A DNA stretch of 64,000 nt, taken from NCBI RefSeq assembly GCF_011745625.1, contig NW_027191464.1:186001-250000 (forward strand). Direction: 5' to 3'. The translations under genes were made by a program, and so were the position numbers. Source of the DNA: Cladosporium halotolerans (taxonomy: Eukaryota). The notes beneath the pieces were generated by a model. The model did no database searches. It was not told the DNA's origin and saw only the letters and a list, made by a program, of their open reading frames with translations. Shown here one piece after another: positions 29,458-46,040 of the stretch (position 1 is its first letter; the number at the start of each line of letters is the position of its first letter).

Positions 29458-32298
29458 ATGGAGCTGCCGGCACAGCCAAACCTGCGGGTGACGAGTACGC
29501 AAGAGCACGCACATTGCTTCGCACGGGCAGGACACGACTAACCCACCCTTCCCAGTCATCGCCGCCGATGGTCTGTACAAGAGGGATGTATTCCGTAAGT
29601 GGCAAGCACCGCAACCCCCGTTCCCACGAGGGTCACATGCTCACGGAATATGCGTACAGGCTTCCCTGATCCCTTCGCCGTCGCCACGATTGGCGGCGAG
29701 CAGACGAGGACCACGGGCGTCATCAAGAAGACACTGAACCCGTACTGGAACGAGAGCTTTGACATGTAGGTGCCGGCGGTAAAGCTTACACATGCGCGGA
29801 GGCAAGACGCTAATGGGGAGCGACAGGCGTGCGACGGACGAAAGCATACTCGCGGTGCAGATCTTTGACCAGAAGAAGTTCAAGAAAAAGGACCAGGGCT
29901 TCCTCGGTGTGGTCAACGTGCGCATTGGCAGTGTCCTAGATCTGGACGTTGGCGGAGACGGTATGTCTCGGCGCAGGCCCCGTGCGAGAACACGTACTGA
30001 CCTCGCTACCAGAGATGCTCACGCGAGACTTGCGAAAGTCAAACGACAACCTCGTCGTCAATGGAAAGCTCATTCTTAACCTCTCCACTAACCTGCGGGC
30101 ACCCATCAACAATTCTGGAAACAGTTCATCTAGACCAGCACTTACTACGCCCGGAACGTCAACGAATGGCGCTCACACAGGATCTTCTACGCCTGCAGGC
30201 GCTCAGTCGCAAGCATCATTGAACGCCGACCGACCTGCGAGCAACGCCTCTAGGCAACCAACCAATGCCGCCGGCCCTCCGGCTGCCACCAACGGTACCG
30301 CGGCTAACAGGCGCGCTGACGGGACCGGATACAGTGCGTTTGAAGACGCGCAAGGACGACTGCCAGGCGGTTGGGAGCGAAGGGAAGACAACCTAGGAAG
30401 AACTTACTACGTGGACCACAACTCGCGGCAGACTACCTGGATTAGACCCACTGCCAACTATGACGCTGGCGAGCAGCGGAACCAGTTGCAGCAGCAACAG
30501 AATGTGGAAAGACAAAGACATCAAGCACGTGTGTTGCCGGAAGACAGGACGGGTGCCAACTCACCAACTTCCGATCGCAACTCTCCTTCTCAGACTCCGA
30601 ACCCAGTGAACCAGGCTACTGCAGCCCAGATGGTGGCTACAGGTGCGACAACTGCAGGTACTGGCGAACTTCCAGCAGGCTGGGAGCAAAGGCATACGCC
30701 TGAGGGGCGCGCGTACTTTGTTGATCACAACACTCGCACCACCACGTGGGTCGACCCCAGGCGGCAGCAGTACATCAGGATGTACGGACAGAACGCCGGC
30801 GGAAACAACACCACTATTCAACAGCAACCGGTGTCGCAACTCGGACCTCTGCCCAGCGGCTGGGAAATGCGTCTTACCAACACAGCACGTGTCTACTTCG
30901 TGGACCACAACACCAAGACGACGACATGGGATGACCCTCGTCTGCCGTCATCTTTGGACCAGAACGTTCCGCAGTACAAGCGTGACTTCAGACGTAAGCT
31001 CATTTACTTCCGATCGCAACCAGCACTGCGGATTCTGTCTGGCCAATGCCACGTCAAGGTCCGACGATCGCATATTTTTGAGGACTCATATGCAGAAATC
31101 ATGCGTCAAAGCCCGAACGACCTCAAGAAGAGGCTAATGATCAAGTTCGATGGTGAAGACGGTCTGGATTACGGTGGTCTTTCTCGGTTAGTCGATCAAC
31201 CTTGCAATCTTCCAAAAAAAAAAACATTACTGACAATGCTTCCGCAGTGAATTCTTTTTCCTGCTTTCTCACGAAATGTTCAACCCCTTCTATTGCTTGT
31301 TCGAGTACTCGGCACACGACAACTACACTCTCCAAATAAACCCGCACTCTGGCATCAACCCTGAGCATCTTGGATATTTCAAGTTCATTGGCCGTGTCGT
31401 CGGCCTGGCCATCTTCCACCGACGCTTCCTGGACGCATTCTTCATTGGCGCTTTCTACAAGATGATCCTCAAGAAGAAAGTGGCCCTTGTCGACATGGAG
31501 GGTGTCGACGCCGAGTTCCACCGCACGCTCACCTGGACCATGGAGAACGACATCACTGATGTCATCTACTCCACTTTCTCGGTCGACGATGAGCGCTTCG
31601 GTGAGAAGGTCATTGTTGACCTCAAAGAAGGCGGCAGGGACATTGAGGTGACGAACGAGAACAAGAAGGAATACGTTGAGTATGTTCGCCCAGTATCTTT
31701 CTCATCGATCAAACAAGATTACTAACATTTTCCCAGGCTGATCACCGAGTGGCGCATCCAGAAGCGCGTCGAGGAGCAATTCAACGCTTTCGTCCAGGGC
31801 TTCCACGAGCTCATCCCCGCCGACCTCGTCAACGTTTTCGACGAGCGCGAGCTCGAGCTCCTCATCGGCGGTATCGCCGACATCGACGTTGACGACTGGA
31901 AGAAGCACACCGACTACCGCGGCTACACCGAAAGCGACCTCGTCGTGCAAAACTTCTGGAAGGTACGCATCCTATCCCTCTCCTCATTTACCCCCTCCCC
32001 ACGTCCCGCTAACACCCAACCCCACCAGGTCATCCGCAGCTGGGACGCAGAGCAGAAGTCCCGCCTCCTGCAGTTCGCGACCGGCACCTCGCGCATCCCC
32101 GTCAACGGCTTCAAGGACCTGCAGGGGTCCGACGGGCCCCGCCGCTTCACGATCGAGAAGTCCGGCGAGGAGAGCCAGCTGCCCAAGTCCCACACGTGCT
32201 TCAACCGCCTCGACCTGCCGCCTTACAAGAGCTACGACGCCCTGCAGCAAAAGCTCACGTGGGCGGTCGAGGAGACGGTCGGTTTTGGGCAGGAGTAG
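29458..32298 (+). CDS. RSP5: NEDD4-family HECT E3 ubiquitin ligase (C2-WW3-HECT); exons 29458-29494, 29556-29594, 29660-29765, 29827-29960, 30013-31186, 31248-31679, 31737-31962, 32029-32298
   Basis: C2 ([22 protein letters not shown]), three WW domains (LPxGWE..YxVDHN..TTW), HECT with [10 protein letters not shown] and catalytic [14 protein letters not shown], end GFGQE. Confidence 0.98.
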
Positions 32299-33144
32299 AT
32301 GGGGATGTGGGGGTATATATCGAATAAGGGGGTTCTTTGGGGTTGTATTGTTGATACATATGGAAGGACGGATGGATGGATGAATGTGGGGGGTTTTGCT
32401 GCGCGCGTCCCGCTTGTATCATCATCATCATGCAAGAGGGACTGCTGTGCGCTTCGGGCAACGAAATGACTTCGAGAGGAGATGGAGCGCGGAGGAAAAT
32501 ATAGGATGGCACATTCGGATGGGGAGCTGTATCTCACTTTTTCCTAAGCTGCCTTTGTTCTTTTCTGGGGTTTCAAGTGATATCTGCTGTTTCTATGTGA
32601 GTTGCGCCAAGATGATGCTCATGGCGGCCCCGGATGTATGTGGCGTGGTTGGCGTGCCATGACCATTGGGTTCATTAGAACGCTGCTCGACAGAGAAGAC
32701 AAGCAGGCAAAGGCATTGCCCATCAATCTTCTCACCAATCCCCACGTCTGAGACCCGGGCAGGATCCGCTCACGTGGGCTGGATCACATATTATTATGAC
32801 CGCCGACCGGAATGATTGACCTAACGAGACAAATCCGAGTTTTGGCGATACCTTTCTGATTGGGCTACAAGTAGCTATACTAAAGACATTGACATCTGCG
32901 CTTTCGCTTTCGAAACCAGGAACTCCCTCGCCGTTCTTTCGTCGAAGGCAGGCAGGGACGAGAGGCCGTACACATCCCTCCGTGCTCCGACTCATCAGCC
33001 TCTCTTCCTCTGCCTCCTCGCGTCTTCCTCCCTGCTTACGAGGCGTTTAGCCAAATTTGAAACAACAACACTAATAATTACGAGAGAAAAAAGAACCTAG
33101 AATCGAACGACTCTCTTACTCCCCAATCACACCCATCACGCCCT

Positions 33145-33841
33145 TTAAAGCGCAGCAACAACACCCATCATGGCAGCCAAAACACCCGCAGCGGGCACGA
33201 CCACGCTACCAGCCGCGCTATCGCCCGTCGCGGACGCGGCGGCGTCCGAAGCCGTCGAAGACGCCGCGCGGCCGCCGGAAGTGGACGTGGACCCGGAGGA
33301 CTCGGTCGCCTCGGCCTCGGAGCCCGTCGAAGTGCTGTCGGCGGACGACTGCGTGGCGGTGCTGGAGCCCGTGGAGCGGGAGGAGCTGGCGCTGCTGCTG
33401 CTGGAGCTGTAGGCTTTGGCGGCGTTGCACCAGGCGACGTTTTGCTGGTCGGCGGCGAAGCGGTTGGGGTCTGGGGGGAGGTTAGTTGGTGGGTTTTTGG
33501 GGGGTTTGTGATGGCGTTGGCTTACCGGACGGGCAGTTGTCGTAGCAGGTCAGGACGGCCTGGGAGTTGTCGCACTTGCAGTTCCAGTCTTGGTCGTCGC
33601 AGCTCTGGACGCGGGCGGAGGTCGAGGCGTAGCAGTTGGAGATGATGCTGGTGGGGTTTTGTTAGGTTTGTGGTTTTGAGTGTGAGGATGGCGTTTGGGG
33701 TGGGTCTTACGCATCAATGGCCTCACCGCAGCCGGAGGAGCTAGTTGTGGCAGAGGAGGTCGCGGCGCTGGCGGTGGAAGTGGTGGACTGGGCGGCGGCG
33801 AGGCCGGCGACGGCCAGGACGAGGGCGGTGGTGTACTGCAT
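33145..33841 (-). CDS. Small GPI-anchored Ser/Thr-rich protein with an 8-cysteine (CFEM-like) domain; exons 33841-33711, 33647-33526, 33470-33145
   Basis: Signal MQYTTALVLAVAGLAAA; spliced C..NC..SC.DQDWNCKC..TCYDNCPSDP..WC; Ser/Thr stalk; hydrophobic tail SAAGSVVVPAAGVLAAMMGVVAAL. Confidence 0.88.
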
Positions 33842-35006
33842 GTTTGTTGATGTAGTCTTTGATGTCTGATGTAGCGTTGTGTATGTTTTCCAATGCTTTC
33901 TGCAAGTGTTGATGCGAGAAGACTGTGCTACAGAACGAGAAGAGGAGCTGACAGGACGACACGGCAACGGAGGAGGAGAGGCCCAAACAAATAATGTATA
34001 CCTACCCGGCAAACAGCAGCAAAAGGAGGAAAGACCGCGCGCATACCCTTGCTTTCCCATCCAGTCCCCAATAGAGCCAGAGCCAGCGCCAGATAAACAG
34101 ACGGACTCCGGGGAAAGCAGCGCCCACAGACCACTCTGCAGGAATGAGGCGGCCGGCGGCGCGCGTGATTGGACTCGCGGCACGCCGCTAAGCTGAGAGA
34201 GAGGGCAGGCGATATGCCGGCGGGCGCTGGGAACCGCAGAAACACCCCGTGAACGGCCCTGCGGCTCTCGCGAGTCGCGACGAGTCTCACGCCAGCCGTG
34301 CATGTGCATGTAACAAGTACCTACACGGCCGGCTCCCCCTCAGCATAGCTGCAGCCCGTGTACATTGCGCGGCCCTGGTGCTTGTCAGGGCGTGCGTCTA
34401 GCCGGCCACCTGGGTACCTTGAAGGTGGCGAGTTCGCCACCGCGGAGGGTCTATTGGCGACAAACGGCTTCTTAGGCGTATCGGGGCAAGTGAGGTGGTA
34501 TGGGCTACTGCTAAGTTTGGGAGATCTGGGCGGCCGTTGGAAGGCGAGATTGCAGGGTCCGCTTGCTGCCGAGCCCGCGCTAGCCAGGCGAGCCCTGGCT
34601 CTGAGCTTATGTGCGGCACGTTTGTTGTTTGGTGCCTCGGAGGAAACATTCACGTGGTGCGTCTTTGTGAGACCGCGAGCAATGCTCGTGGTTCCACGGT
34701 AAGGGACTGTGGTGCAGCGTTGGGGCTCGTGCTGGGTGGTCGGCTGTCTCGGGACGAGAGCGTACCATGGCCATTCATCTCGTCTTTCTGCTCGAAGTTC
34801 ACCACGGCGTGCGTGATGAGGTGTGATGGGAAAAGTCACGTCGTATAGGAGTATGGGCTATAGCCATTGCTTCGAAGGCATTCGGTACGCATTTTGCGAG
34901 CTATCACGCGCTACTGACCTTATTATCACTGTTCTTCGTTATCCATTATTTTCTCATGGCCGCAATGGCCTCTGTCTGACCTCGCCAGTCACATCTCACA
35001 CCCCAT

Positions 35007-36253
35007 CTAAAGCGGCGGAGTGTCAGCGTACAGCGACCCAGCGAACGCCTCCGGATACCTGTGCCCAGCATCCTCCGCCTCCTCGCACGCCTTCCTGATC
35101 TCCGCCTCCTCCTCCTTGCTCAGCTTGATCTTCAGCGAGCCCACGTTCTCCTCGACTCTCGGGATCGACGTCGTGCCCGGGATGGGGAAGAAGTCGTCGC
35201 CCTGCGCCAGGATCCAGGCCAGCGTCAGCTGGCTAGGCGTGCAGTTCTTCTTCTGCGCCAGCGCCGTGATCTGGTCGACGAGCTTGAGGTTCTTGGGGAA
35301 GTTCTCGGCGGAGAAGCGCGGCGCGAACTTGCGGAAGTCGCCCTCCTCGAAGTCGTCCGGGCTCCTGATCTGCCCGCCCAGCATGCCGCGGCCGATGGGC
35401 GAGTAGGCGACGATGGCGACGCCGAGCTCGCGCGCGGTCTTGAGGAGGCCGATCTGCTCGGACTCGATGTCGAGGCTGAAGGGGGAGTACCTGTGTGGAG
35501 CGAAGCGCGTCAGCGTCTCATCCTTCAAGTTTCACGACCGGACATAAAACATACTCAATCTGAACAGCATCCACATGCTCGACCTTGCACGCACGGCGCA
35601 GCGTCTCGGAGCTGATCTCCGACAGGCCGATGTACTTGATCTTGCCCTCCTGCTTGAGCTTCTTCATCTCACCCATTGTCTTCTCGATCGGGGTGACCTG
35701 GTCGACGCGGTGGCAGTAGTAGAGGTCGATGACGTCGACGCCCAGGCGGCGCAGCGAGCGCTCGCACGCGCTGCGGCAGTACTCGGGGCTGCTGTCGACG
35801 TAGCGGCTGCCGTCCTCGCGCATCGCGTTCGCGAACTTGGTCGCGAGGAAGATGTGCTCGCGCTTGCCGGGGTTTTGCTTGAACCATTTGCCTTGGGGTG
35901 GGGTGTTAGCAGGCCTCTCCTCGCATTGCTATCAGATGTTGAGACAACTCACCGAGAAGATCCTCACTGTCCTGGTACATGTCGGCAGTGTCCCAGAAAA
36001 GGTCGCCCTCCTCGTAGACTTTGTCGAGCACCTTGAAACGCTCGGCATCCGGCTTCGCAGTGCCATAGAAAGCACTCTGCATCCCAATGTCAGCGACCAG
36101 CCATTTTTCCAAGAACTCACAAAACCCTCAACTCACCAGTCCCATAGTACCATAGCCCAACCTGTTGACCTGCGGTCCATTCTTGCCGAGCTTGGCCGTG
36201 GGCAGCTTGCTCTGGCCGGTGACCTTGCCGATGACCTGCTGTACTTTGTCCAT
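35007..36253 (-). CDS. Aldo-keto reductase (AKR13/YakC-like); exons 36253-36137, 36076-35953, 35891-35555, 35490-35007
   Basis: LGYGTMGLSAFYG, WDTADMY, FLATKF, IDLYYCHR, KYIGLSE, QIEYSPF, AYSPIGRG, PIPGT; Asp-Tyr-Lys-His tetrad intact. Confidence 0.95.
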
Positions 36254-37083
36254 TATGAGTTTTGGCAGATTGTTTTCGAAGTAAATGAGATGCTGTTGGA
36301 GTCCAAGAGCAACAATGTGAAGAAGCGGAAAGGCGTTCGAACCTCCCCTTATATCCGCCACATCACATTGCCGCGTTCACGACAGCCCGCCCATCAATGT
36401 TCACGCATGACGTTACAGCTACCTACCTAGCAGCGGGAAGCTCAGGCTCGGAGTTAAGGGCCATTTGGAAGCGCTTTCGTCCGTCTCACCCACCAGCAGT
36501 GCGGGGCTTTGCGGCAGACTCTCCACCGCTGTGTTACGGCTCTTAGCAAGTCGTTCTCCGCGATCCAATGTTCGAAACTCTATGCGCTTCACGTAAGCAG
36601 GCCGCATTAATATTGCATGATCGCACCAAGGGGGAACTGCACGTCTGGCCAACGGCGGGTCCGTGGCGAGGATCCTGCTCAAGCCGACGCGGGGCCGCGT
36701 GAACAAGCTCACTGAAGAGGACCGCACAGTCCGTGGCTCGGGATCGGTGGATTCAGTTCATGCGAAATATACATTCGTTCGTTCCGCTGACATACATATG
36801 TACAATGTGGACAATCATCCTCCAGACCAGACAAAATCGTATCATGCAGGCATGCCGTCCCAAAATTCTCTTTTTCCCTTCCCCCAAGCCCGGCGCCGTG
36901 CTGTTCGCGGAAAGCTGCGAAATGTAACAAGCCTCTCTCTCCCTCTCTCCGCCTTCCAAAAATTCGTAAGAGCAACCCATTGGTATCATGTGAAATCAAA
37001 AGACCCGTCCCAAAAGAAAAAGAGAATTCAAAAACCAGAGAACCTCCCAAAAAACGCCCTTGTGCGTGCCATGAACGATCCCT

Positions 37084-39699
37084 TCACGTCTGCCCTCCTC
37101 CATTGCTGCTTCGCTCCCTAAACTCCACCGCGCCATTCTCCTTGCTAGGCCGCTTGCCCATCATGACGATGCTCAGCGCGCGGCTGGCCACGCTGCTCGT
37201 CGAGCTGGGCCGGCCGTCGCTGGCCGCCTCAGACCACGACATCGGATCGACGACGCGGCGAATCTTGCCGACGGAGCTGAAGACGATCGGCATGACCGTG
37301 CCCGCCGCGAAGACGACGACGGCGACGATGACGGCGAACTGCGGCCCCCGCCCCTCGTTGACGATGTGGCTGCTGATGGGCGAGAAGACGGCGCCGCCGG
37401 AGATGGCGGACGTGACGACGACGCTGGCGAAGCGCGTGTGCTTGCCCATGCCGCGGATGGCCAGCGCGAAGATGAGCGGGAACAGCGGGCCCTCCATGCA
37501 GAAGACCATGAGGAGCATGGCGAGGCCGGCGCGGCCCGTGAGGTGCATGGAGAGGGCCTGGAAGAGGATGGCGCCGAGGAAGAAGATCAGGATGAGGTAG
37601 CGGGGGCGGACGAGGAGGGTCAGCCCCGCGGCGAGGAAGCGCGAGACGGCGAAGCAGGTGTGCGCGACGGCCAGGTAGTTGGATGCGCTCCAGTCTGTGC
37701 CGACGACGGCCGCGAGGTACTCGTCGAAGGTCGTGCCGTTGACTTCTTGCGCGCCGACATAGCAGAATTGGCTGAATGCTCCGAGGCCCAGAATGATCCA
37801 GATGACGGGGATTGAGCGGATTTGGGCCTTGTTTGCGCCGTCCATGCGCTCCGCTGCATCCTCCAGCTCGGCGTTGGTGGCTTCGGGGAGTGGCACGTAG
37901 TGGTAGACTACAGCCAGCAGGACCGTGAAGAGCGCAATACCAAGATACGCGTACTGCGTGTCCACCAGGGAGGGAGCATCAAAGTACGTCTCGAAGAACG
38001 CCTTCTTGGCGATCAAAGGCGCAATGACAGTGCCAACGGCCTGGATAGCCTGACTGAGCAACAGCCGCATTTCGGCGTACTGCGGCGGACCGCAGAGTGC
38101 GATGAAAGGGTTCGCCGAAACCTCCAAGATCGACAGGCCGAAACCGACGAAAATGTTCGTGATCAGATAAGCCGGGTAAGATGTTAGTACGGCCGATGGC
38201 CAGAAGATGAGAGTTCCGCAAGCGTATATGCTCAGACCGACGGAATAGCATGCCTTGAAACCCCAGTGCTCGAGAACCCAACGTCCCACAAGCCAAGGTC
38301 CGATGAGGTAACCAGCGAAGTATGCGCTGTGAATGCTCGATGTCTGTCCAGGCGACATCCGAGCGACGCTCTGGAATTGTTGGTTGAGCACATCAAGCAA
38401 GCCGTACTCGAAACCCCAGATAAAGAAGAGAAGCGATACCATGGCGAATGGGAAGACTGAGTCGCGACTCGTCATTTGTACCATACTCTTCTTCTGGTTG
38501 AGGTTCACAAAATCGAAAAAGGTGGGCGAATCTGGCCTCGTGTTCCGCGTTGTGTTGGTGAGCATTGTTGTCGTGCGGTCCAGTCTTGCGCCGTTCGCGC
38601 CGTTCATATCAGGCGTCGTCAAAAAGTCCATCATACCCATCGGCCCTTCGTCTTCGTGTGGTTCTGCATGGCTCTCATTTGCTGAAGGCGGCGTCTCGAC
38701 AATGGACGGAACGCGGTGTGCGTTGGCCATCTCGGAGTTGTAAGTGTACCTTGGAGCCGAGATGGACGAGTCTTTTTCGGTGACATCTCCTGCGTCGCGA
38801 AGCATGCGTGGCAAAAACCTCGAAGCCAACGGCTTGAGAGCAGGTACGCATGCGCACATGATACCGATGTTGACTTCGATCACGGACCACATGAAACTCA
38901 AGGAAGCGTACCAAGCAAAGTCCGTGTTCTCCGAGGTAAGGTTGTTGTCCTCGTTCAGATTATTGTGTATGTTGGCGATGCGTGTTTCTGCCGCAGACTG
39001 CAAGTACGCAATGCGTACCACATCGACGGCGGCGACAAAGATACCAAAGCTGAAGGTGATTATAAGAATGATTTTCTGTTTCTTCGGCAGGCGCATGCTC
39101 GTGAGAATAGGCATAGGTAAAAATAGAATGGCCAGATCGGTGATGATGTTGAGAGGTGCTGATGATAAATAGATGGTGACGATATCGGTGCAACTGGCTG
39201 AATCGGGAATTGGCGTTTGAAAGACGGCGTTGACGGGCGTGCATTGCCAGATATTGAGCATAGTCAACGCGAAGCCGCCAGCGTTGACCACAAAAAGTGT
39301 CGCAATTGTCGCCCACCGAAACGTGTGGTTGCTCTTGGAAAGTGTGAGGTAGAATATCAGGATTGATGTCTTTGACATCATGAGGGCAGGGTTGTAAAGC
39401 ACGCTGAAGGCGTAGTTGGATTTTTTGAGCGTCGACGCCCATTCCGGAGGTATGTTTTCTTCGTGTCGTCCGAGTCCGTAGCGTGTGCCCCAGATCACTG
39501 CCATCGTCATGCCGAATGCGATGATCCACGCGAGCACCATGAAGTAGTCATCCAGCGCGATCTTCTTGACGATTGCGCCACGGGACAGCATGCGCAGAAG
39601 GACAAAGACGGTGGATAGGACGGCCAGCGCAATGCTGACCGCCAGCACAGGCGCTGCTCGGCCCTGGAAATCATTGTGGTCCAAGTTCATGCCCGCCAT
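37084..39699 (-). CDS. Fusion of PTH11-like (fungal rhodopsin-domain) 7TM protein and FucP/GluP-type MFS sugar transporter, ~871 aa, intronless
   Basis: N-half: LDDY, YGLGRH, KTSILIFYL, NIITDLAILFLPMP, WSVIEVNIGIMCACVPALKPL. C-half: LFFIWGF.YGLLDVLN, AYFAGY, LEVSANPF, QFCYVGAQ, FPLIFALAIRG, ISGGAVF. Confidence 0.9.
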   Translation of the reverse strand: MAGMNLDHNDFQGRAAPVLAVSIALAVLSTVFVLLRMLSRGAIVKKIALDDYFMVLAWIIAFGMTMAVIWGTRYGLGRHEENIPPEWASTLKKSNYAFSVLYNPALMMSKTSILIFYLTLSKSNHTFRWATIATLFVVNAGGFALTMLNIWQCTPVNAVFQTPIPDSASCTDIVTIYLSSAPLNIITDLAILFLPMPILTSMRLPKKQKIILIITFSFGIFVAAVDVVRIAYLQSAAETRIANIHNNLNEDNNLTSENTDFAWYASLSFMWSVIEVNIGIMCACVPALKPLASRFLPRMLRDAGDVTEKDSSISAPRYTYNSEMANAHRVPSIVETPPSANESHAEPHEDEGPMGMMDFLTTPDMNGANGARLDRTTTMLTNTTRNTRPDSPTFFDFVNLNQKKSMVQMTSRDSVFPFAMVSLLFFIWGFEYGLLDVLNQQFQSVARMSPGQTSSIHSAYFAGYLIGPWLVGRWVLEHWGFKACYSVGLSIYACGTLIFWPSAVLTSYPAYLITNIFVGFGLSILEVSANPFIALCGPPQYAEMRLLLSQAIQAVGTVIAPLIAKKAFFETYFDAPSLVDTQYAYLGIALFTVLLAVVYHYVPLPEATNAELEDAAERMDGANKAQIRSIPVIWIILGLGAFSQFCYVGAQEVNGTTFDEYLAAVVGTDWSASNYLAVAHTCFAVSRFLAAGLTLLVRPRYLILIFFLGAILFQALSMHLTGRAGLAMLLMVFCMEGPLFPLIFALAIRGMGKHTRFASVVVTSAISGGAVFSPISSHIVNEGRGPQFAVIVAVVVFAAGTVMPIVFSSVGKIRRVVDPMSWSEAASDGRPSSTSSVASRALSIVMMGKRPSKENGAVEFRERSSNGGGQT

Positions 39700-41463
39700 G
39701 CCCAGTGTAACAGTATGCGGGCGGCCGGCGGCCCCCGATAGTTGTGCGCAGTTCACCCTCCAATTGTCCTAGGCGGCCTTCGCGACCACGCCATGCCTCA
39801 CCAGCGTCGCTGTCGGCAGAGTCCCCTCCGATCAAGCCAGGCCGGCTCTGCGGTATTCGATGTGTTGTCGGCGGTGGTTCGAATCCAGGATGTCGGCGCA
39901 GGGCCGCGGATGGTGTGGTGTGCAGGCGGGCGGACAGCGGCGAGAACAGACGATATCAAGCAGAGAAGGCGGAGGCAAAGGCGGCCGGCCGGGTGGGTCC
40001 ACCACGAGGCGGGAAGGCCTTCACATCGCGGGCTCTGCAGACCCCGAGTCGCGGGCGGCGGTCGAGGAGCTGGGGCAGGCAAAGGCAAAGCGCGGCGAGG
40101 CCGCTGATTTGCGGACGGGTGGAAAGTACCGGGGCGCGCGTCGCCAGACAGGCGAGCGCTGGAGTATCGACAGACTTAGACAAACTTAGCCCACGCATCG
40201 GCCGCTTGTTCCTGCTGCTCCTGGGCCGCTGACGTCGCGCTCTCCGCAATTCGGCTGAGCCTTTTTCTGCTGCAGACGCTGGCCGGTCGCGTGGGGGCTG
40301 CGCTGTGTCCAGTGCGCGCGGCCGCACCGCGTGTCTGCCGCCGTGCTTATTACCTAGGTATTGCCAGAGCACGCGTGTGAGCCGCGGTGCAATATTAATC
40401 TGCCTCGAACGGCAGCAGCTGGCAACTCGAGCGCACTGCTCGGCGACACCAGCGTCCGCCGCAGAGAGTACATAGTCCCGCCGAGCCCTGGCGCAGCGTC
40501 GCGGCCTCGACCCAAGACCCTCGACCAACGGCAAAGAGGCCGCATTTCGCCCGGCGGCGGTGGCTTGCAGCACAGCCAGATCCGGGCCAGACAGACGCGT
40601 GAGCCGCCCCATCCCTCACTCTGCGGCGCCAGCCGAGCTATGCACGTGACCCTGCGTGTGCGCCTCTGCCTCTGCAGCAAATCAGCAGGCTTACTACCCC
40701 GTGGGGCGCCCGCAGCCGCGCAAGTCTCCTGACCCTCCACCGTTCTGCGCCGTTCCCGCCGTTTCGTCCAGCCCCATGGCCTGCTCCGATGTTCGCAATC
40801 GTCTCCATCGGACGCCGTGTCATGTCCAGCGGCGAGGGGCGCGGTGGGCTCTGGTCGCAGGAGATCTTCACACCGCAACCGTCAATGCTTGCGCGGTGCG
40901 CTTGGACGCCTCGCTTGTGTACGAGGTGGGGGAGATGGCGTTTCGCTCGTTGCGAATCCTTTGACTGATCGCCGCATGGGCGGTGATCCTACTGGTCGGC
41001 GATTGACAGCTTTCGCCAGAAGCTCTAGCTTTCGGCCATTCACAGGCCACGATTTGCTCTCGCTAGTAGACTCAAAGGCTCTCTACTTTGGTGAGATCGC
41101 CCCATCACCTCGCCCTCCACCAGGGCAGCCCCTGGATCTCGGTCCTTTCTGCCCCGAGGCTACCAGCGGCTGAGTGATGTGAAAATGTGCAGCTTTGACG
41201 AAATCGCATTGGAGGAGCAATGCGCCGATCCTTAGGAATTCTGGATTGTGACTTCGAAGCAACGGTCCGCAGAAACGCGGCGTGAAGTGTGAATACAACT
41301 TATCCGGAACCCCTTGCGTGATCATCCGCGCGTACGGATTCGCGAGTAGTATACCCGACACTACCCTATTGACCAGTCGATTTAACTGTATCTATCAAGA
41401 TCCCAGTAGGGTGGACGCTGTAGAGTTAGTCACCTTCCCATTGATCGCTTCAATAGCGACGCA

Positions 41464-43978
41464 TCAAGCAGCCTGAGGCGCCACTGCAACAATCCTTCCA
41501 TTCTCGCGCAGCGCCCTGAAAGCCTCATCCACTTCCGCAACGCCGCATAGTCCAAGCTGCATCTCACCGTGTCTCTCAGAAGCGGACCTAACAGCTTCAG
41601 CAGCATAAGCGCTCCGCTCCGTGTACGCCCACTGCCTCAGTGCGTCTACCTCACTCTCCCACCTCTTCAAGCACGCTTCGACCTCATGCTCTTCGCTCTC
41701 CCGCATGCATTTCCGAAGGAAGCACGCGGCGTCGAGAACCAGAGTGTTGCCCTCCGCATCGAGGCTGGCGAACTGTAGCGGAGCTTCGTGAGCATGGGGT
41801 CCCTGCGCTCGATGATTCCGTGGCAGACGACGATGGTCCATTTGCCTTGCGTTAGGGGTGCGGTTGGCATGAAAGGGCCAGGCGACATTTGGCTGGTTCG
41901 GGCGGCGAAGGCGCAGAGTTCGCCGGGGAGGGGGTGGACGGCGAGGTCGTCCTGGGATAAGTTAGCAGAGTATAGGTTGGAGTGGTTGCAAAGCCGCGCA
42001 GCGATGTGAGCGGCCAGCGAAGGGTTTTAGCAGTGCTTGTTCCGAACACCACTATTTTTGTGTTCTAGCAGAACGGATACTAGCGTGAGACCCAAGATGT
42101 GTCCGTGGATGCTGATGCGCAGGAGCAACAGTTGGAGCGATTGGAGGCGGAGTGATGTGCTTACCTTCAATGACACGCGCTCTGCCATTTGCATAATGGC
42201 CCATCCTCTCTCCCAATCGGGACTCATCGCGTAAGGCTCCGCGAGAATGGATAAGAACATGGGGAAGGCCGCAACGCCTTCATCGGCTGTGAGGAAACTA
42301 TCGCTCAAATGGAGACATTAATTGTTGGCAGAGGGGCGGTCGTTGATGTCATTATTTCCCAGCACTTCGGACCACCGTAGTCCGTCGTTCTCAATACGTG
42401 GCGTGATCGTGGCGCTTGTTTCCGCTGATTCCGGAAGATTGAAGTATACGAGCTGCGTGAGAGGGAACTGTTTGGGGTGTGGGAGCGCCGGGAGCGGAGG
42501 GTTCTATAGTTTGGGCCGGATGCCTTGGGCTGATAGGACTCTTGTTTGGTTGGAGTCGTTGCTGCTCACAAATCTGCGAGAGTATAGCTCGGGCGTGGTG
42601 AGGCTTGTAATACCGGTGCCATCGATGGTGCTGACGATGTCATTGAGATCGATAGTGTCGTGTTTCCCAACGGATAGCTCAGCAATGCTATCGCTGGCGA
42701 TCAACCGTTGAAGACCCCCACCCGTGACATCTTCCAGATCTGGCAAGGTCAAGCGTAGCTTCTGGTTTGGGTCATCCGACAACTCATTCACGATTGTGAC
42801 AACTTTATCTAGCGAGAGGTTGCAGAAAGGGCTGAGGTCGACTGTAGTACAGCCTCTGTGTGCTCGCTCTAGTAACGTGCACAAATGCTCATCTCTCAAA
42901 TCCTCAGGAGAGGCAAGAACGTATGCATGCAACGCCTCTGGGAAGCCTGGTTCACCTTCAACCTCTTCGAGCCAGGAGAGACCGCCCGATTTGACCCCGT
43001 TCCCAATCAATTTGCCCAGCGATTCAATTTTCGAACGAGGGATGTGGCGATTAGAGCCGTGAAACTCTTCAGAAACTCGCTTACTGGCTGTACCCTCGCC
43101 GTCAAAAGGCAAGCTCACGGCCCCGAATCCACCACCTTGCGGTCAGACGCTATCCAAATCGCAGCAGCGGACGAGCGGGAACGCATCCAACTCACGCACC
43201 TCGTCCGGGAAGTGCTCGGCCACGGGGTTGCCAAGAGCAGGTCCATGATTGGAGCAGCCAGGGCCATCGGAATGGTCATTGGCGTCGTCGTAAATTTCAT
43301 CTTCGGCCCGGTACCTCCGGATGTAGTCGCTCGCGTTCATGATGCTCCGGCTGTGACACAATCCGTCATGACGGTCGCAAGGCCGTTTTGCGACGCATCG
43401 CATCATGGCGTAGCGCGGGCGGCCGATCTCTGTTATGTCGAAGATGGAGATGCCGTCGCCGTTCTGGATTTGGTCGGGTGGTGTGTCAATGGGTAGCGGG
43501 TGGGCGGGCGAGAGCGCGTGGGATGGAGGTCGGACGTCACTTCCGAGAAGTAGGGCTGTGGTCATGAAAGGGAAATCGATGCCCTGTTAGATATTCATCA
43601 GAGCTGTCAAAAACTAGCTATCTGGATCGAGGATTGGGGGAGATGTGCTGTCTTATTTTCCAGGCAATCAAATCTGGATCAATCACAAAACAAAATACTG
43701 GTAACATTGGATAGCAAGCAAGGAAGGGATATCGCACTCACCCATTCAGATCGATCGCCTCTACTGCATGGATTCCAGAAGTCCGCCGGCTTGGATGCGG
43801 CAAGTTTCAACTCTCGTCGGATTGCAGGAAAGTTGCGAGGCGCCCTCAGGATCTTCAATGTGACAAGGTATTGCCGCACCGCTGAAAGCTCCATCAACCA
43901 CTGGCTGTGAATTGCAGCTATCGTTCGATAGCGCTCGCCAACGCGGGCTATCGCGTAGAACTGGCGTCGCTGGCGCAT
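41464..43978 (-). pseudogene. Disabled copy of an uncharacterised fungal gene (exons ~43978-43742, 43583-42165, ~41952-41464) with 3 in-frame stops and 1 apparent frameshift
   Basis: ORF pieces 43565-43143, 43118-42504, 42503-42321 and 42308-42165 are one reading frame broken by TGA (43143), TAG (42504), TAA (42318); canonical introns persist; last exon changes frame near 41773. Confidence 0.72.
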
Positions 43979-44220
43979 ACCGTGAGCTGGGCAGACGTGT
44001 AAGATATGGTTGAGGATGACATCGTTAAGTGTCGAGCAGATTTACCGCGTTTTAAAGCTCTTGTATGCAAGATCTAGCAATGGTTGTGCATACACGCTTG
44101 TGTTACGCGAGAAGGCGGCAGGATCGCGCCAAGAGGTGAGGTCGACCCGCGGGGCACCTCATTGAACAGCCTGAAGGGCGATACTGTGCCACAACTTCCA
44201 ACCTGCATTGAGCAGTTGCG

Positions 44221-45694
44221 ATGGTTGCAAAAGAGTGCGAGATTGTCGAATGTGACGAAGCAGGAAATGTCACGGCGACATACGTGCAGACCGCCGGCTC
44301 CAAGGAAGGTGTCGGTCGAGTCGATGTCATTCTTCCAACGCAGACGAAACCAGTCTGGCAAAGACTACTAGACGTGTTTCTGCCCGCAGGATACCCCCAC
44401 AGTGTGACAGATGACTATTTGGAGTGAGTAGATGTCCACACGAGAAAGTAATGCTCCTATCGATTGTCTTGACTGACATCTGGCAAGATATCAGGTTTAT
44501 GTATGAGAACACGACCCGCATAGACCGTCACTCGACTGACAAACATCCAAGGACTCCCTCCAAGCATTCTCCAGCAGCATCGCTGGCCTCCTCTCCTCCC
44601 GCGCCGTCCTCTCCAGCGTCGGGGTAGGCGACTCCTCCGCCTCACCAACCGCCGCCCTCATCCTCTCCATCATCCAAGAATCCGCCGGCCGCATCGCAAC
44701 AATCCTCTTCGCCCACCGCTTCGGCACCTCCCTCGAGCCCGAGTGCAAAATGTACCGCCTGCTGGCCGACATCCTCAACGACCTCGCCTTCGTCCTCGAC
44801 TGCCTGTCCCCCGCCTTCCCCAAACCCCTCCGCGTCCTCGTCCTCAGCTTCAGCAGCGTCCTGCGCGCCCTCTGCGGCGTCGCCGCGGGTTCCGCGAAAG
44901 CCAGTCTCAGCGCGCACTTCGCCCGCTGGGGCAACCTGGGCGAGCTGAACGCGAAGGACTCCAGCCAGGAGACCGTCATCTCGCTCCTGGGCATGCTCGT
45001 CGGCAGCCTCGTCGTGCAGTACGTCACGTCGCCGCTCGCGACCTGGACGACTCTCATCGTGCTTCTCTCGGTACATCTCGAGACCAACCGCCGCGCCGTC
45101 CGCGCCGTCAGCATGCGGACGCTCAACCGCCAGCGCGCGAACCTCGTCTACCACCACCTGCGGCGCGGCCACGTTCCCACACCTACGGAAGTCTCGCGGG
45201 AAGAGCACATCTTCGAGCAGCCAGGCGTGCTGCGTAGCTCGGCGGGCGGAGCGCTGGGATTCTGCGAGCTGGGCGCGTCGCTGGCTTCGTTTCTACGAAC
45301 TCTAGGGCCTGCACACGCGGCGACGAAAGCTACGAGCGTGCCGAGCGCGGCGCTGGCGAAGTTGCTCAGGCCGTTCGATAACAGCAAATATCTGATGTGG
45401 TATGACCCGCTGAGCGTGAGTCAGAAGGTCAGCGTGCATGTTGCGTTCAAGCAGGGTGCTACGCCGCTGGATCATCTAACGGCGTGGTGGCATGCGCTGG
45501 CGCTGGCGGAGGGGTCGCACGGGCAGGTGCATGGTGAAGAAGCTGAGGGCGATGAGTTGAGCTTGCTGGAGCGATCGATGGCATCTGCGTCTGAGCTCGT
45601 GTCGAAGTATCAGGATCAATTGGTGGAGGCGGGTTGGGATCTGCAAACGGGGGCGCTGGAGACGGGCTCGAGTTCCCGTCTGATAGTGAAGTAG
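44221..45694 (+). CDS. RUS1 family protein (DUF647, root-UVB-sensitive / vitamin B6 homeostasis); exons 44221-44423, 44488-44500, 44552-45694
   Basis: FLPAGYPHSVTDDYLE|YQVY|DSLQAFSSSIAGLLSSRAVL..GVG, YRLLADILND, SAKASLSAHFA..NLGELNAKDSSQET, AVRAVSMRTLNRQR. Confidence 0.93.
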
Positions 45695-45968
45695 GTACAA
45701 CCACGGAAGGGGTTTATCCACATACCTGATGCTAGCGATACGTATATTCCTACGCCTCAATCTGCTTATTCGAAAAGACACGCATATTACGTCGTTCGCA
45801 GTGATACCCAAGTTCGTGATACTCCGCCGTTCAAAACCTCTCAATGAGACAACGACATACCTGTCGAGCGAGGATTACAGACGACTGGAGGTAAAAAAAG
45901 AACAAAAACAAAGAATGAAAGCAGAAGTGGCTGCAAAAGATAATATACTCCAGGTTGGCAAAAGAAAT

Positions 45969-46040
45969 TGACCGACGCAGGGATCGAACCTGCAATCTCT
46001 TGATTCGTAGTCAAGCGCCTTGCCATTGGGCCAGCCGGCC
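45969..46040 (-). tRNA. tRNA-Arg (anticodon ACG), 72 nt, no intron
   Basis: GGCCGGC acceptor stem pairs with GTCGGTC+A; anticodon arm CTTGA-CTACGAA-TCAAG; T arm GCAGG-TTCGATC-CCTGC; followed by TTTCTTTT Pol III terminator-like tract. Confidence 0.97.

Follow-up and report, generated by a model that had tools for sequence, protein, structure and literature searches.

Among the putative G-protein-coupled receptors (GPCRs) of filamentous fungi, Pth11-like proteins form the largest class, and no ligand is known for them (PMC13308352). In its accessible text, the 2026 review from which this is taken defines class XIV of the fungal GPCRs by the CFEM domain and PF20684, documents coupling to G proteins for Pth11 itself, and never uses the word "fused". 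Here we describe a gene in which a domain of this class is fused to a transporter. The gene lies on the minus strand of a window of 64,000 nucleotides from Cladosporium halotolerans (assembly GCF_011745625.1, contig NW_027191464.1, positions 186,001 to 250,000), and its 871-residue product combines an N-terminal Pth11-like seven-transmembrane (7TM) domain with a C-terminal major facilitator superfamily (MFS) domain. All coordinates below are those of the window.

On the transporter side, the point of comparison is the fucose permease FucP from Escherichia coli, in which Asp46 is the proposed proton site and Glu135 contributes to substrate recognition (PMC3824880, PMC4882079); in the proposed transport cycle, Tyr365 is the hydrogen-bond partner of Glu135 (PMC3824880). 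Fungal members of the same FHS family include FRT-1 from Neurospora crassa and RhtA from Aspergillus niger, which carry L-rhamnose and L-fucose (PMC10774165). We liken these two to the MFS half by family only. A survey of N. crassa sugar transporters counts NCU04310 among four FHS-family genes, and its supplement lists this protein of 1050 residues as an uncharacterised "Fucose permease" (Transporter Classification, TC, 2.A.1.7) that is induced on fructose (PMC10774165). The portion of the survey that we could consult makes no mention of a 7TM domain in NCU04310. Conversely, NCU04310 is absent, with 0 occurrences, from the 25 Pth11-related genes in the accessible text of an N. crassa GPCR survey (PMC4683645). 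In Trichoderma reesei, protein 67334 is described as an MFS permease that is up on cellulose and sophorose (PMC3998047). As we show below, NCU04310 and 67334 both belong to the fused family.

A third point of comparison is provided by transporter-like proteins with a role in signalling. Snf3 and Rgt2 are non-transporting MFS sensors in which the fold itself or the C-terminal tail signals, and neither carries an attached 7TM domain. In the yeast transceptors Pho84, Gap1 and Mep2, the transporter fold also informs signalling (PMC3824880). The protein from C. halotolerans shares the concept alone with these transceptors, none of which contains a receptor-type 7TM domain. A search of the full-text literature, with subscription journals and bioRxiv supplements outside its coverage, revealed no paper describing a fusion between a Pth11-like domain and an MFS transporter and, in line with a preliminary description of this DNA that knew of none, no functional study of one.

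The coding sequence is a single open reading frame (ORF) without introns (Table 1). The frame remains open upstream to 39768, which adds 23 codons and no further ATG. At E ≤ 1, Pfam recognises two families only in the 871-residue protein: PF20684 (Fung_rhodopsin) matches residues 35–293 with an E-value of 1.3e-59 and 202.1 bits against a cutoff of 27, covering positions 1–236 of the 237-position profile, and PF07690 (MFS_1) matches residues 425–774 with an E-value of 8e-18. Judged by these E-values, two such matches within one frame of 871 codons are far beyond chance. A full-length AlphaFold2 model, computed from an alignment of 40 orthologues (A1), has a mean predicted local distance difference test (pLDDT) score of 71 and a predicted template modelling (pTM) score of 0.69. 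It contains seven long helices at residues 15–284 followed by short ones up to residue 300, twelve helices at 415–809, and a disordered tail from residue 825. The gene is thus modelled as encoding one membrane protein with 19 helices, in which a linker of 115 residues connects the 7TM domain to a 12-helix MFS domain. This is the layout that the preliminary description had proposed from sequence. Its estimate of about 19 helices agrees with the 7 + 12 helices predicted by AlphaFold2, the N-terminal half does model as a 7TM domain, and its domain limits (residues ~14–290 and ~416–810) match the modelled helices at 15–295 and 415–809. The strings MDFLTTPD, PTFFDFVN, GLLDVLN (38383–38403) and LEVSANPF (38104–38127), which it had singled out, all translate where it had placed them.

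Table 1. Positions of the fused gene, its domains and selected residues, and of neighbouring genes, in the 64,000-nucleotide window
Feature	Residues	Positions	Strand	Basis
Complete coding sequence, 871 codons plus stop, no introns	1–871	37084..39699	(-)	Single ATG-to-stop ORF
Pth11-like 7TM domain	15–295	38815..39657	(-)	PF20684, AlphaFold2 model
Cytosolic linker, predicted disordered	296–410	38470..38814	(-)	pLDDT <50 over 305–403
FHS-family (FucP-like) MFS domain, 12 helices as 6+6	411–810	37270..38469	(-)	Pfam, FucP match, Foldseek
Cytosolic C-terminal tail, predicted disordered, conserved patches VDP, SRALS, VExRER	811–871	37087..37269	(-)	
5' untranslated stretch		39700..39909	(-)	Spliced-type contigs: X3 record 12 to 39890, X6 record 18 to 39909
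3' untranslated stretch		36836..37083	(-)	X3 record 10 (spliced-type run) spans 36836–37110
TM4–TM5 loop, bounded by Cys153 (39241–39243) and Cys170 (39190–39192) codons	153–170	39190..39243	(-)	Sequence
Linker motif 1, MDFLTTPD; F359, L360 and T361 invariant	357–364	38608..38631	(-)	
Linker motif 2, PTFFDFVN, directly ahead of MFS TM1	392–399	38503..38526	(-)	
Asp436 codon, equivalent of FucP Asp46 (proton site)	436	38392..38394	(-)	HMMER alignment
Glu526 codon, equivalent of FucP Glu135, invariant in A1	526	38122..38124	(-)	HMMER alignment
Glu652 codon, MFS TM7, fused-lineage signature	652	37744..37746	(-)	Residue counts
Aldo-keto reductase gene, four exons		34846–36263	(-)	PF00248
ORF with three WW domains		29940–31250	(+)	E 7.4e-37
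PF04884 gene, "vitamin B6 photo-protection and homoeostasis" (RUS/DUF647)		44540–45694	(+)	E 4.3e-85

The N-terminal 300 residues were also modelled alone, from an alignment of 46 sequences (A2). This model (pLDDT 88, pTM 0.86) adds a short helix at residues 286–299 after transmembrane helix 7 (TM7). In a wide VIA-align search, the fungal class D GPCR Ste2 (7ad3_B) came first with a Z-score of 18.8 and a root-mean-square deviation of 4.5 Å over 253 aligned residues, 3.3 Z units ahead of the next row. Below it stand AdipoR2 (15.5), TAS2R14 (15.1) and then dozens of GPCRs at 13–15. Since helical bundles reach Z-scores of ~13–14 by arrangement alone, only the Ste2 row lies clearly above background. 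Foldseek returned no match for the same model in the PDB at E ≤ 1e-3, and its top rows were all GPCRs. According to the model, then, the N-terminal half has a GPCR-type helix arrangement. Loops 1, 3 and 5 are rich in lysine and arginine, as is the stretch that follows TM7. The TM4–TM5 loop is devoid of both, and it is bounded by two cysteines, Cys153 and Cys170, that are invariant in A1 and A2 and that we infer to form an extracellular disulfide. The clustering of positive charge and the cysteine pair argue for an N-out/C-in orientation. This would put the linker on the cytosolic side together with the start of the MFS domain, so that the 7 + 12 layout is topologically consistent. Two charged residues within the membrane, D188 and R229, are invariant in both alignments.

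With a PF20684 match over the whole profile, seven helices, an N-out/C-in orientation and a GPCR-type fold, the N-terminal half resembles Pth11 from Magnaporthe oryzae and class XIV in general. It differs from Pth11 in two respects. The CFEM domain is missing (no Pfam match to PF05730 at E ≤ 1 in the 871 residues, and only 14 residues ahead of TM1), and a complete MFS permease takes the place of a cytosolic tail.

For the C-terminal half, E. coli FucP (chains 3o7q and 3o7p) is the sole solved relative by sequence. HMMER aligns 388 residues of the two proteins (residues 411–798 with FucP 21–423 in 3o7q) with an E-value of 1.7e-36. A Foldseek search with the whole model also places 3o7p/3o7q on top (E 6e-13 and 1.6e-12, TM score 0.79–0.81 normalised to the target, 24–26% identity). 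The next MFS protein, NorA, follows five orders of magnitude behind with an E-value of 8.6e-8. We counted residue equivalents along the ungapped blocks of the HMMER alignment to 3o7q. By this count, the FucP residues W38, D46, E135 and Q159 correspond to W428, D436, E526 and Q550, and all four are conserved. N162 is replaced by Q553, and Tyr365 by Phe740, which is invariant in A1. Two membrane glutamates, E652 and E736, stand where FucP has Thr and Met. The most evident difference from FucP is the extension of ~410 N-terminal residues that makes up the 7TM domain and the linker.

The scores against curated families define how far this kinship reaches. Both NCBIfam fucP equivalog models score below their cutoffs (TIGR00885, 154.1 against 280.4 bits; NF007524, 127.5 against 427), as do gluP (92.5 against 202.55) and NagP (84.2 against 625). 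The MFS half is therefore best classed as a member of the FHS family (TC 2.A.1.7) and not as a FucP equivalog: the earlier label "FucP-type" holds at family level, as the HMMER match indicates, but not at equivalog level, where the sub-cutoff scores and Phe740 stand against it. The same description had suggested that the equivalents of Asp46 and Glu135 are retained. In this protein they are, as D436 and E526; across the family this is true of the glutamate and not of the aspartate, as detailed below.

The linker is not uniformly conserved. In the 40-sequence alignment, identity is 35% over residues 296–345 and 60% over residues 346–410, compared with 66% for the 7TM domain and 63% for the MFS domain. 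The conserved part contains two motifs. The first, with the pattern [DE]F[LIVM][TSN].P, is found in the linkers of 109 of 121 close and 32 of 86 divergent sequences, and some orthologues contain it twice. The second, [FYW][FYW][DGE]F[VIMLY], occurs in 109 of 121 close and 44 of 86 divergent linkers. Outside the linkers, in a total of 145,016 residues, the first pattern occurs 0 times and the second 3 times. Trichoderma and Metarhizium members carry the motifs as EFLTTP and YFGFV, and NCU04310 has the second only (YFGFV). Neither motif was found in the N-termini of stand-alone FHS permeases from Mycena. Conserved T-P and S-P dipeptides in the linker could be sites for proline-directed kinases. 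Known short motifs (FFAT, LIR/AIM, clathrin box, 14-3-3 and Cdc4 degron) were compared by eye, and none fits cleanly.

The fused architecture is widespread. Among the best relatives listed, 120 of 120 contain both Pfam domains, with lengths of 815–938 residues except for one gene model of 1397 residues with extra domains. Those with names are Dothideomycetes: the closest comes from Cladosporium fusiforme (84% identity), and others from Rachicladosporium, Hortaea, Fulvia, Zasmidium, Aureobasidium, Elsinoe, Macrophomina and further genera. More distant fused members occur in Pseudogymnoascus (Leotiomycetes), in Penicillium canescens and Talaromyces atroroseus (Eurotiomycetes), and in many Sordariomycetes, including T. 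reesei, N. crassa (NCU04310), Metarhizium, Beauveria and Xylaria. The architecture is thus present in at least four classes of Pezizomycotina, which bears out the earlier belief that similar fusions occur in this subphylum. The T. reesei protein has 986 residues in strain RUT C-30 and is TRIREDRAFT_67334 in QM6a; a second candidate for the fused gene, the "L-fucose permease" 78833 that is up in the FUR1 regulon (PMC12370193), was rejected. NCU04310 (1050–1056 residues), T. reesei 67334 and a Metarhizium "L-fucose permease" (955 residues) contain the same two Pfam domains as the 871-residue protein. Unlike it, these Sordariomycete members are ~100–200 residues longer and have Asn at the equivalent of Asp46. 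Identity between the Sordariomycete query P0169 and the 871-residue protein is 36%. In databases the family goes by names including "Rhodopsin domain-containing protein" and "L-fucose-proton symporter", and the ESM Atlas contains four clusters with this domain pair, of which the three shown have 60, 184 and 97 members. One full-length fused protein (P0146, 854 residues, 38% identity) is filed under the basidiomycete label "Tremellales sp."; Pth11-related receptors have been reported only from Pezizomycotina, according to the accessible part of a preprint (10.1101/2024.11.25.625238).

A broader sample gave a similar picture. From the 50%-identity representatives of 1.84 billion proteins we took the 150 best and scored them with the domain hidden Markov models: 88 contain both halves, 35 the MFS domain only, 9 the linker and the MFS domain, and 18 the N-terminal half only. 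The records without both halves are mostly fragments. In related metagenome loci, one stop-free ORF runs across the junction in 70 of 79 cases, and the other 9 are cut by contig ends or not resolved. This agrees with the earlier argument that an uninterrupted frame, here of 871 codons, is no gene-merging artefact. Both domains are near-complete within one ORF in 15 of the 70 junction loci, as in gene 37084–39699. In the other 55 the ORF breaks at recurrent places, most commonly near position 94 of the 7TM profile and otherwise at 50 or 256, or near position 257 of the MFS profile. These breaks look like conserved introns that are missing from the C. halotolerans gene. Many metagenome "proteins" start at the equivalent of Met107 because of the break near position 94. 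The single exon noted earlier is hence correct for this gene but not for the family, since most related loci would have an intron in the 7TM or the MFS part; the intronless state appears specific to this lineage, and the junction itself lies within one exon in the related loci. Taken together, the relatives, representatives and loci suggest that the fusion is kept under selection.

Transcript data are also consistent with one gene. We aligned four runs (X1, X3, X6 and X8), none of which is on record as RNA, to positions 33000–46000. In X1, X3 and X6, the gene next to the fused gene shows joints of 60–64 nucleotides at 35487/35552, 35892/35955 and 36076/36137. CT..AC ends, equivalent to GT..AG on the minus strand, are seen at the first and third, and the exons of an aldo-keto reductase begin and end at the joints. 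Because these joints are missing from the DNA-like run X8, the other three were treated as assemblies of spliced transcripts. None of the four runs has an intron-type joint inside 36906–39943. Record 12 of X3, an ungapped contig of 2198 nucleotides on 37715–39890, runs from the 5' leader through the complete 7TM domain and the linker into the MFS domain, whose first half it includes. The rest of the fused gene is tiled by other contig pieces with small breaks. Coverage by X1, X3 and X6 is blank over 39944–43415 and parts of 33868–34735, and we draw nothing from these blanks.

These data bear on the idea that the gene gives rise to two proteins, through cleavage of the linker or an internal transcription start, and that the halves act independently. 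A long, predicted disordered linker with a sharply conserved motif is a possible processing site, the contigs show no transcript starts, and 13 MFS-only records group with the fused proteins in the tree described below, though most look like fragments. The junction nevertheless lies in one continuous ORF in 70 of 79 related loci and is spanned by one contig, and co-translation followed by separation would by itself leave the retention of the fusion in four classes unexplained. We consider this explanation very improbable.

The history of the fusion was examined with a FastTree phylogeny of the MFS domain (143 tips, 414 columns). The tips comprise 22 of 120 Dothideomycete and 22 of 168 Sordariomycete sequences, 28 of 126 stand-alone permeases, all 57 representatives with a near-complete MFS domain, and all 14 other MFS-only records. 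All 101 fused tips and 13 MFS-only records fall on one side of the tree, and the 28 stand-alone permeases on the other. This topology agrees with a fusion that arose once and with an ancestral Asp at the equivalent of Asp46. The stand-alone fungal FHS permeases (~460–500 residues, annotated "L-fucose permease") belong to the same MFS family as the fused half, but share only ~35% identity with it (P0219). As a group they are unusually conserved, with 66–70% identity between ascomycete sequences and a Mycena query. Several species, among them Baudoinia panamericana, Oleoguttula mirabilis and Meristemomyces frigidus, contain a fused gene plus a stand-alone FHS permease of ~475 residues.

Two positions in the MFS domain distinguish these groups. 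At the equivalent of Asp46, the 120 close relatives listed have Asp in 105 cases (Asn 8, Ala 3, Glu 3, Thr 1). The 88 divergent fused representatives have Asp in only 19 (Asn 34, Gly 13, Ser 8, Thr 5, others 6, gaps 3), and among 119 Sordariomycete members Asn occurs in 106 and Asp in 4. By comparison, 124 of the 126 conserved stand-alone permeases keep this Asp together with the equivalent of Glu135, which is near-universal in all four sets. Position 652 is Glu in 120 of 120, 45 of 57 and 165 of 168 fused sequences; the stand-alone permeases have Val (118 of 126) or Ile (6 of 126), and FucP has Thr. Three residues beyond this position FucP has Trp278, which we take to line the cavity, so E652 would probably point towards the path of the substrate. 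In Berkeleyomyces rouxiae, two fused genes whose locus tags are consecutive (BROUX41_001325 and BROUX41_001326; P0169 and P0281) share 78% identity, which suggests a tandem duplication. Of the two, the second has Ser at the equivalent of Asp46 and lacks E652, E736 and both linker motifs.

How might such a protein work? We favour a reading in which the MFS half would be an active proton-coupled sugar permease, with 6-deoxyhexoses or hexoses as the family precedent, and the 7TM half together with the motif-bearing linker would form a sensor or regulatory module acting on the same molecule. This module may either control the permease or report its state, with or without the involvement of G proteins. 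The MFS half of this particular protein probably is an active proton-coupled permease. Coupling has slightly the better of the argument because the architecture spans four classes, the motifs of the linker are conserved, and E652 is a change inside the transporter that belongs to the fused lineage. Even so, we regard some functional coupling between the two halves as a nearly even call. The model offers indirect support. A single rigid domain of ~414 of 871 residues would limit pTM to ~0.48–0.53, and the observed 0.69 suggests that the model, by its own measure, places the two membrane domains relative to each other with confidence. A complex prediction with residues 405–825 and 10–300 as separate chains scored 0.00, but was run without controls or supplied alignments and speaks neither for nor against contact.

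Several observations weigh against this favoured reading. The argument from pTM is an indirect one, and AlphaFold models contain no membrane; with a linker predicted to be disordered (pLDDT <50), the halves could be strung together and yet be independent of each other. Physical or functional coupling is read from sequence and models. The accessible sources document no G-protein coupling for Pth11 relatives that lack CFEM. The sub-cutoff fucP, gluP and NagP scores and the exchanges of Tyr365 for Phe740 and N162 for Gln553 mean that the substrate is not nameable. Loss of the Asp46 equivalent across most of the wider fused family implies that proton symport through this residue is no family property. 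The tree that suggests a single origin has a support of 0.43 at the deepest fused node, compared with 0.95 at the node with 110 of 114 tips, and was built without fungal FHS paralogues of the FRT-1/RhtA type and without bacterial outgroups. As for the transcripts, the RNA nature of X1, X3 and X6 is a program's guess backed by the spliced joints alone, both domains are bridged by one contig of one study only, and the contigs, which show no transcript ends, are compatible with an extra MFS-only transcript from an internal start.

A more specific proposal, and that of the preliminary description, is a hard-wired transceptor, in which the 7TM domain would sense that the MFS domain has bound its substrate or is going through its alternating-access cycle, and pass this information to heterotrimeric G proteins and the cyclic AMP (cAMP) or mitogen-activated protein kinase (MAPK) pathways. 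The best fold match of the 7TM half is a G-protein-coupled fungal receptor, and Pth11 works through G proteins and cAMP-dependent protein kinase A, as far as the accessible texts report (PMC13308352, PMC4683645). The conserved fusion and linker motifs and the two-domain arrangement suggested by pTM point the same way, and the fact that most of the family no longer has the Asp of the proton site would be in keeping with a shift from transport to sensing. Yet a fold is no proof of G-protein coupling when helical bundles reach Z-scores of ~13–14 against unrelated chains, and retention of both carboxylates in the C. halotolerans protein indicates a working permease rather than a pure sensor. On balance this proposal seems unlikely to us. 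Its fullest form, in which the 7TM domain reads the permease cycle out to G proteins, cAMP or MAPK, the linker motifs and E652 serve as coupling elements, and the Asn lineages are drifting towards sensors, is quite unlikely.

Alternatively, the protein may be a plain permease whose 7TM domain is a non-signalling accessory for folding, targeting, oligomerisation or turnover, with the linker motifs as trafficking or phosphorylation sites. In the surveyed text, NCU04310 is indeed annotated and treated purely as a transporter (PMC10774165), and another fungal "GPCR class" has proved to be a transporter (Stm1, class IV; PMC13308352). Conserved motifs in a disordered cytosolic linker and tail are also typical of regulatory sites. 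On the other hand, a bundle of 280 residues with 66% conservation, invariant D188 and R229 and an invariant extracellular cysteine pair seems heavy for a passive anchor, and the stand-alone FHS permeases in the same species (Baudoinia, Oleoguttula) do without a 7TM domain. We therefore judge this alternative somewhat unlikely, and retain a sensor or regulatory module on an active permease as the favoured reading.

The surroundings of the fused gene show limited conservation. The four-exon aldo-keto reductase gene lies ~0.6–0.8 kb downstream on the same strand; its PF00248 match extends over three exons, and the joints of X1, X3 and X6 confirm all three introns. A reductase gene has this position and orientation relative to the fused gene in 12 of the 79 loci (L002, L003, L004, L006, L009, L010, L013, L038, L042, L048, L051 and L052), whose identity to the query is 53–84%. 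Counted by distance, the reductase is adjacent in 10 of 15 loci with at least 52% identity and at least 2.5 kb of downstream flank, and in 0 of 20 more distant loci whose flank is long enough. This adjacency may be plain microsynteny or may mark a functional pair. In three loci, L006, L019 and L053, a relative of the ORF with three WW domains lies no more than 10 kb from the fused gene; L053 has only 42% identity to the query. The PF04884 gene, where X1 has a GT..AG joint at 44423/44552, is kept upstream of the fused gene in the closest loci only (L002, L003, L015 and L076). A vitamin B6 theme for the neighbourhood, prompted by the reductase and the PF04884 gene, was considered and rejected: among solved proteins the reductase is nearest to perakine reductase (AKR13, 1.2e-30), and pyridoxine 4-dehydrogenase matches with 4.1e-6 only.

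Gene 37084–39699 is an ordinary member of a large family that databases already contain, and represents no singular event. The papers searched do not present it as a fusion; the architecture itself was already in databases. Because the fused family falls between the inventories of GPCRs and of sugar transporters, the gene counts of both classes are slightly off. Members occur in N. crassa and T. reesei, where knock-outs are routine, so the idea is directly testable. A Pth11-like domain covalently tied to a transporter with an assayable substrate class offers a handle on what Pth11-like domains sense, and if the transceptor proposal were true, it would provide the first defined ligand class, a sugar, for the orphan Pth11-like class.

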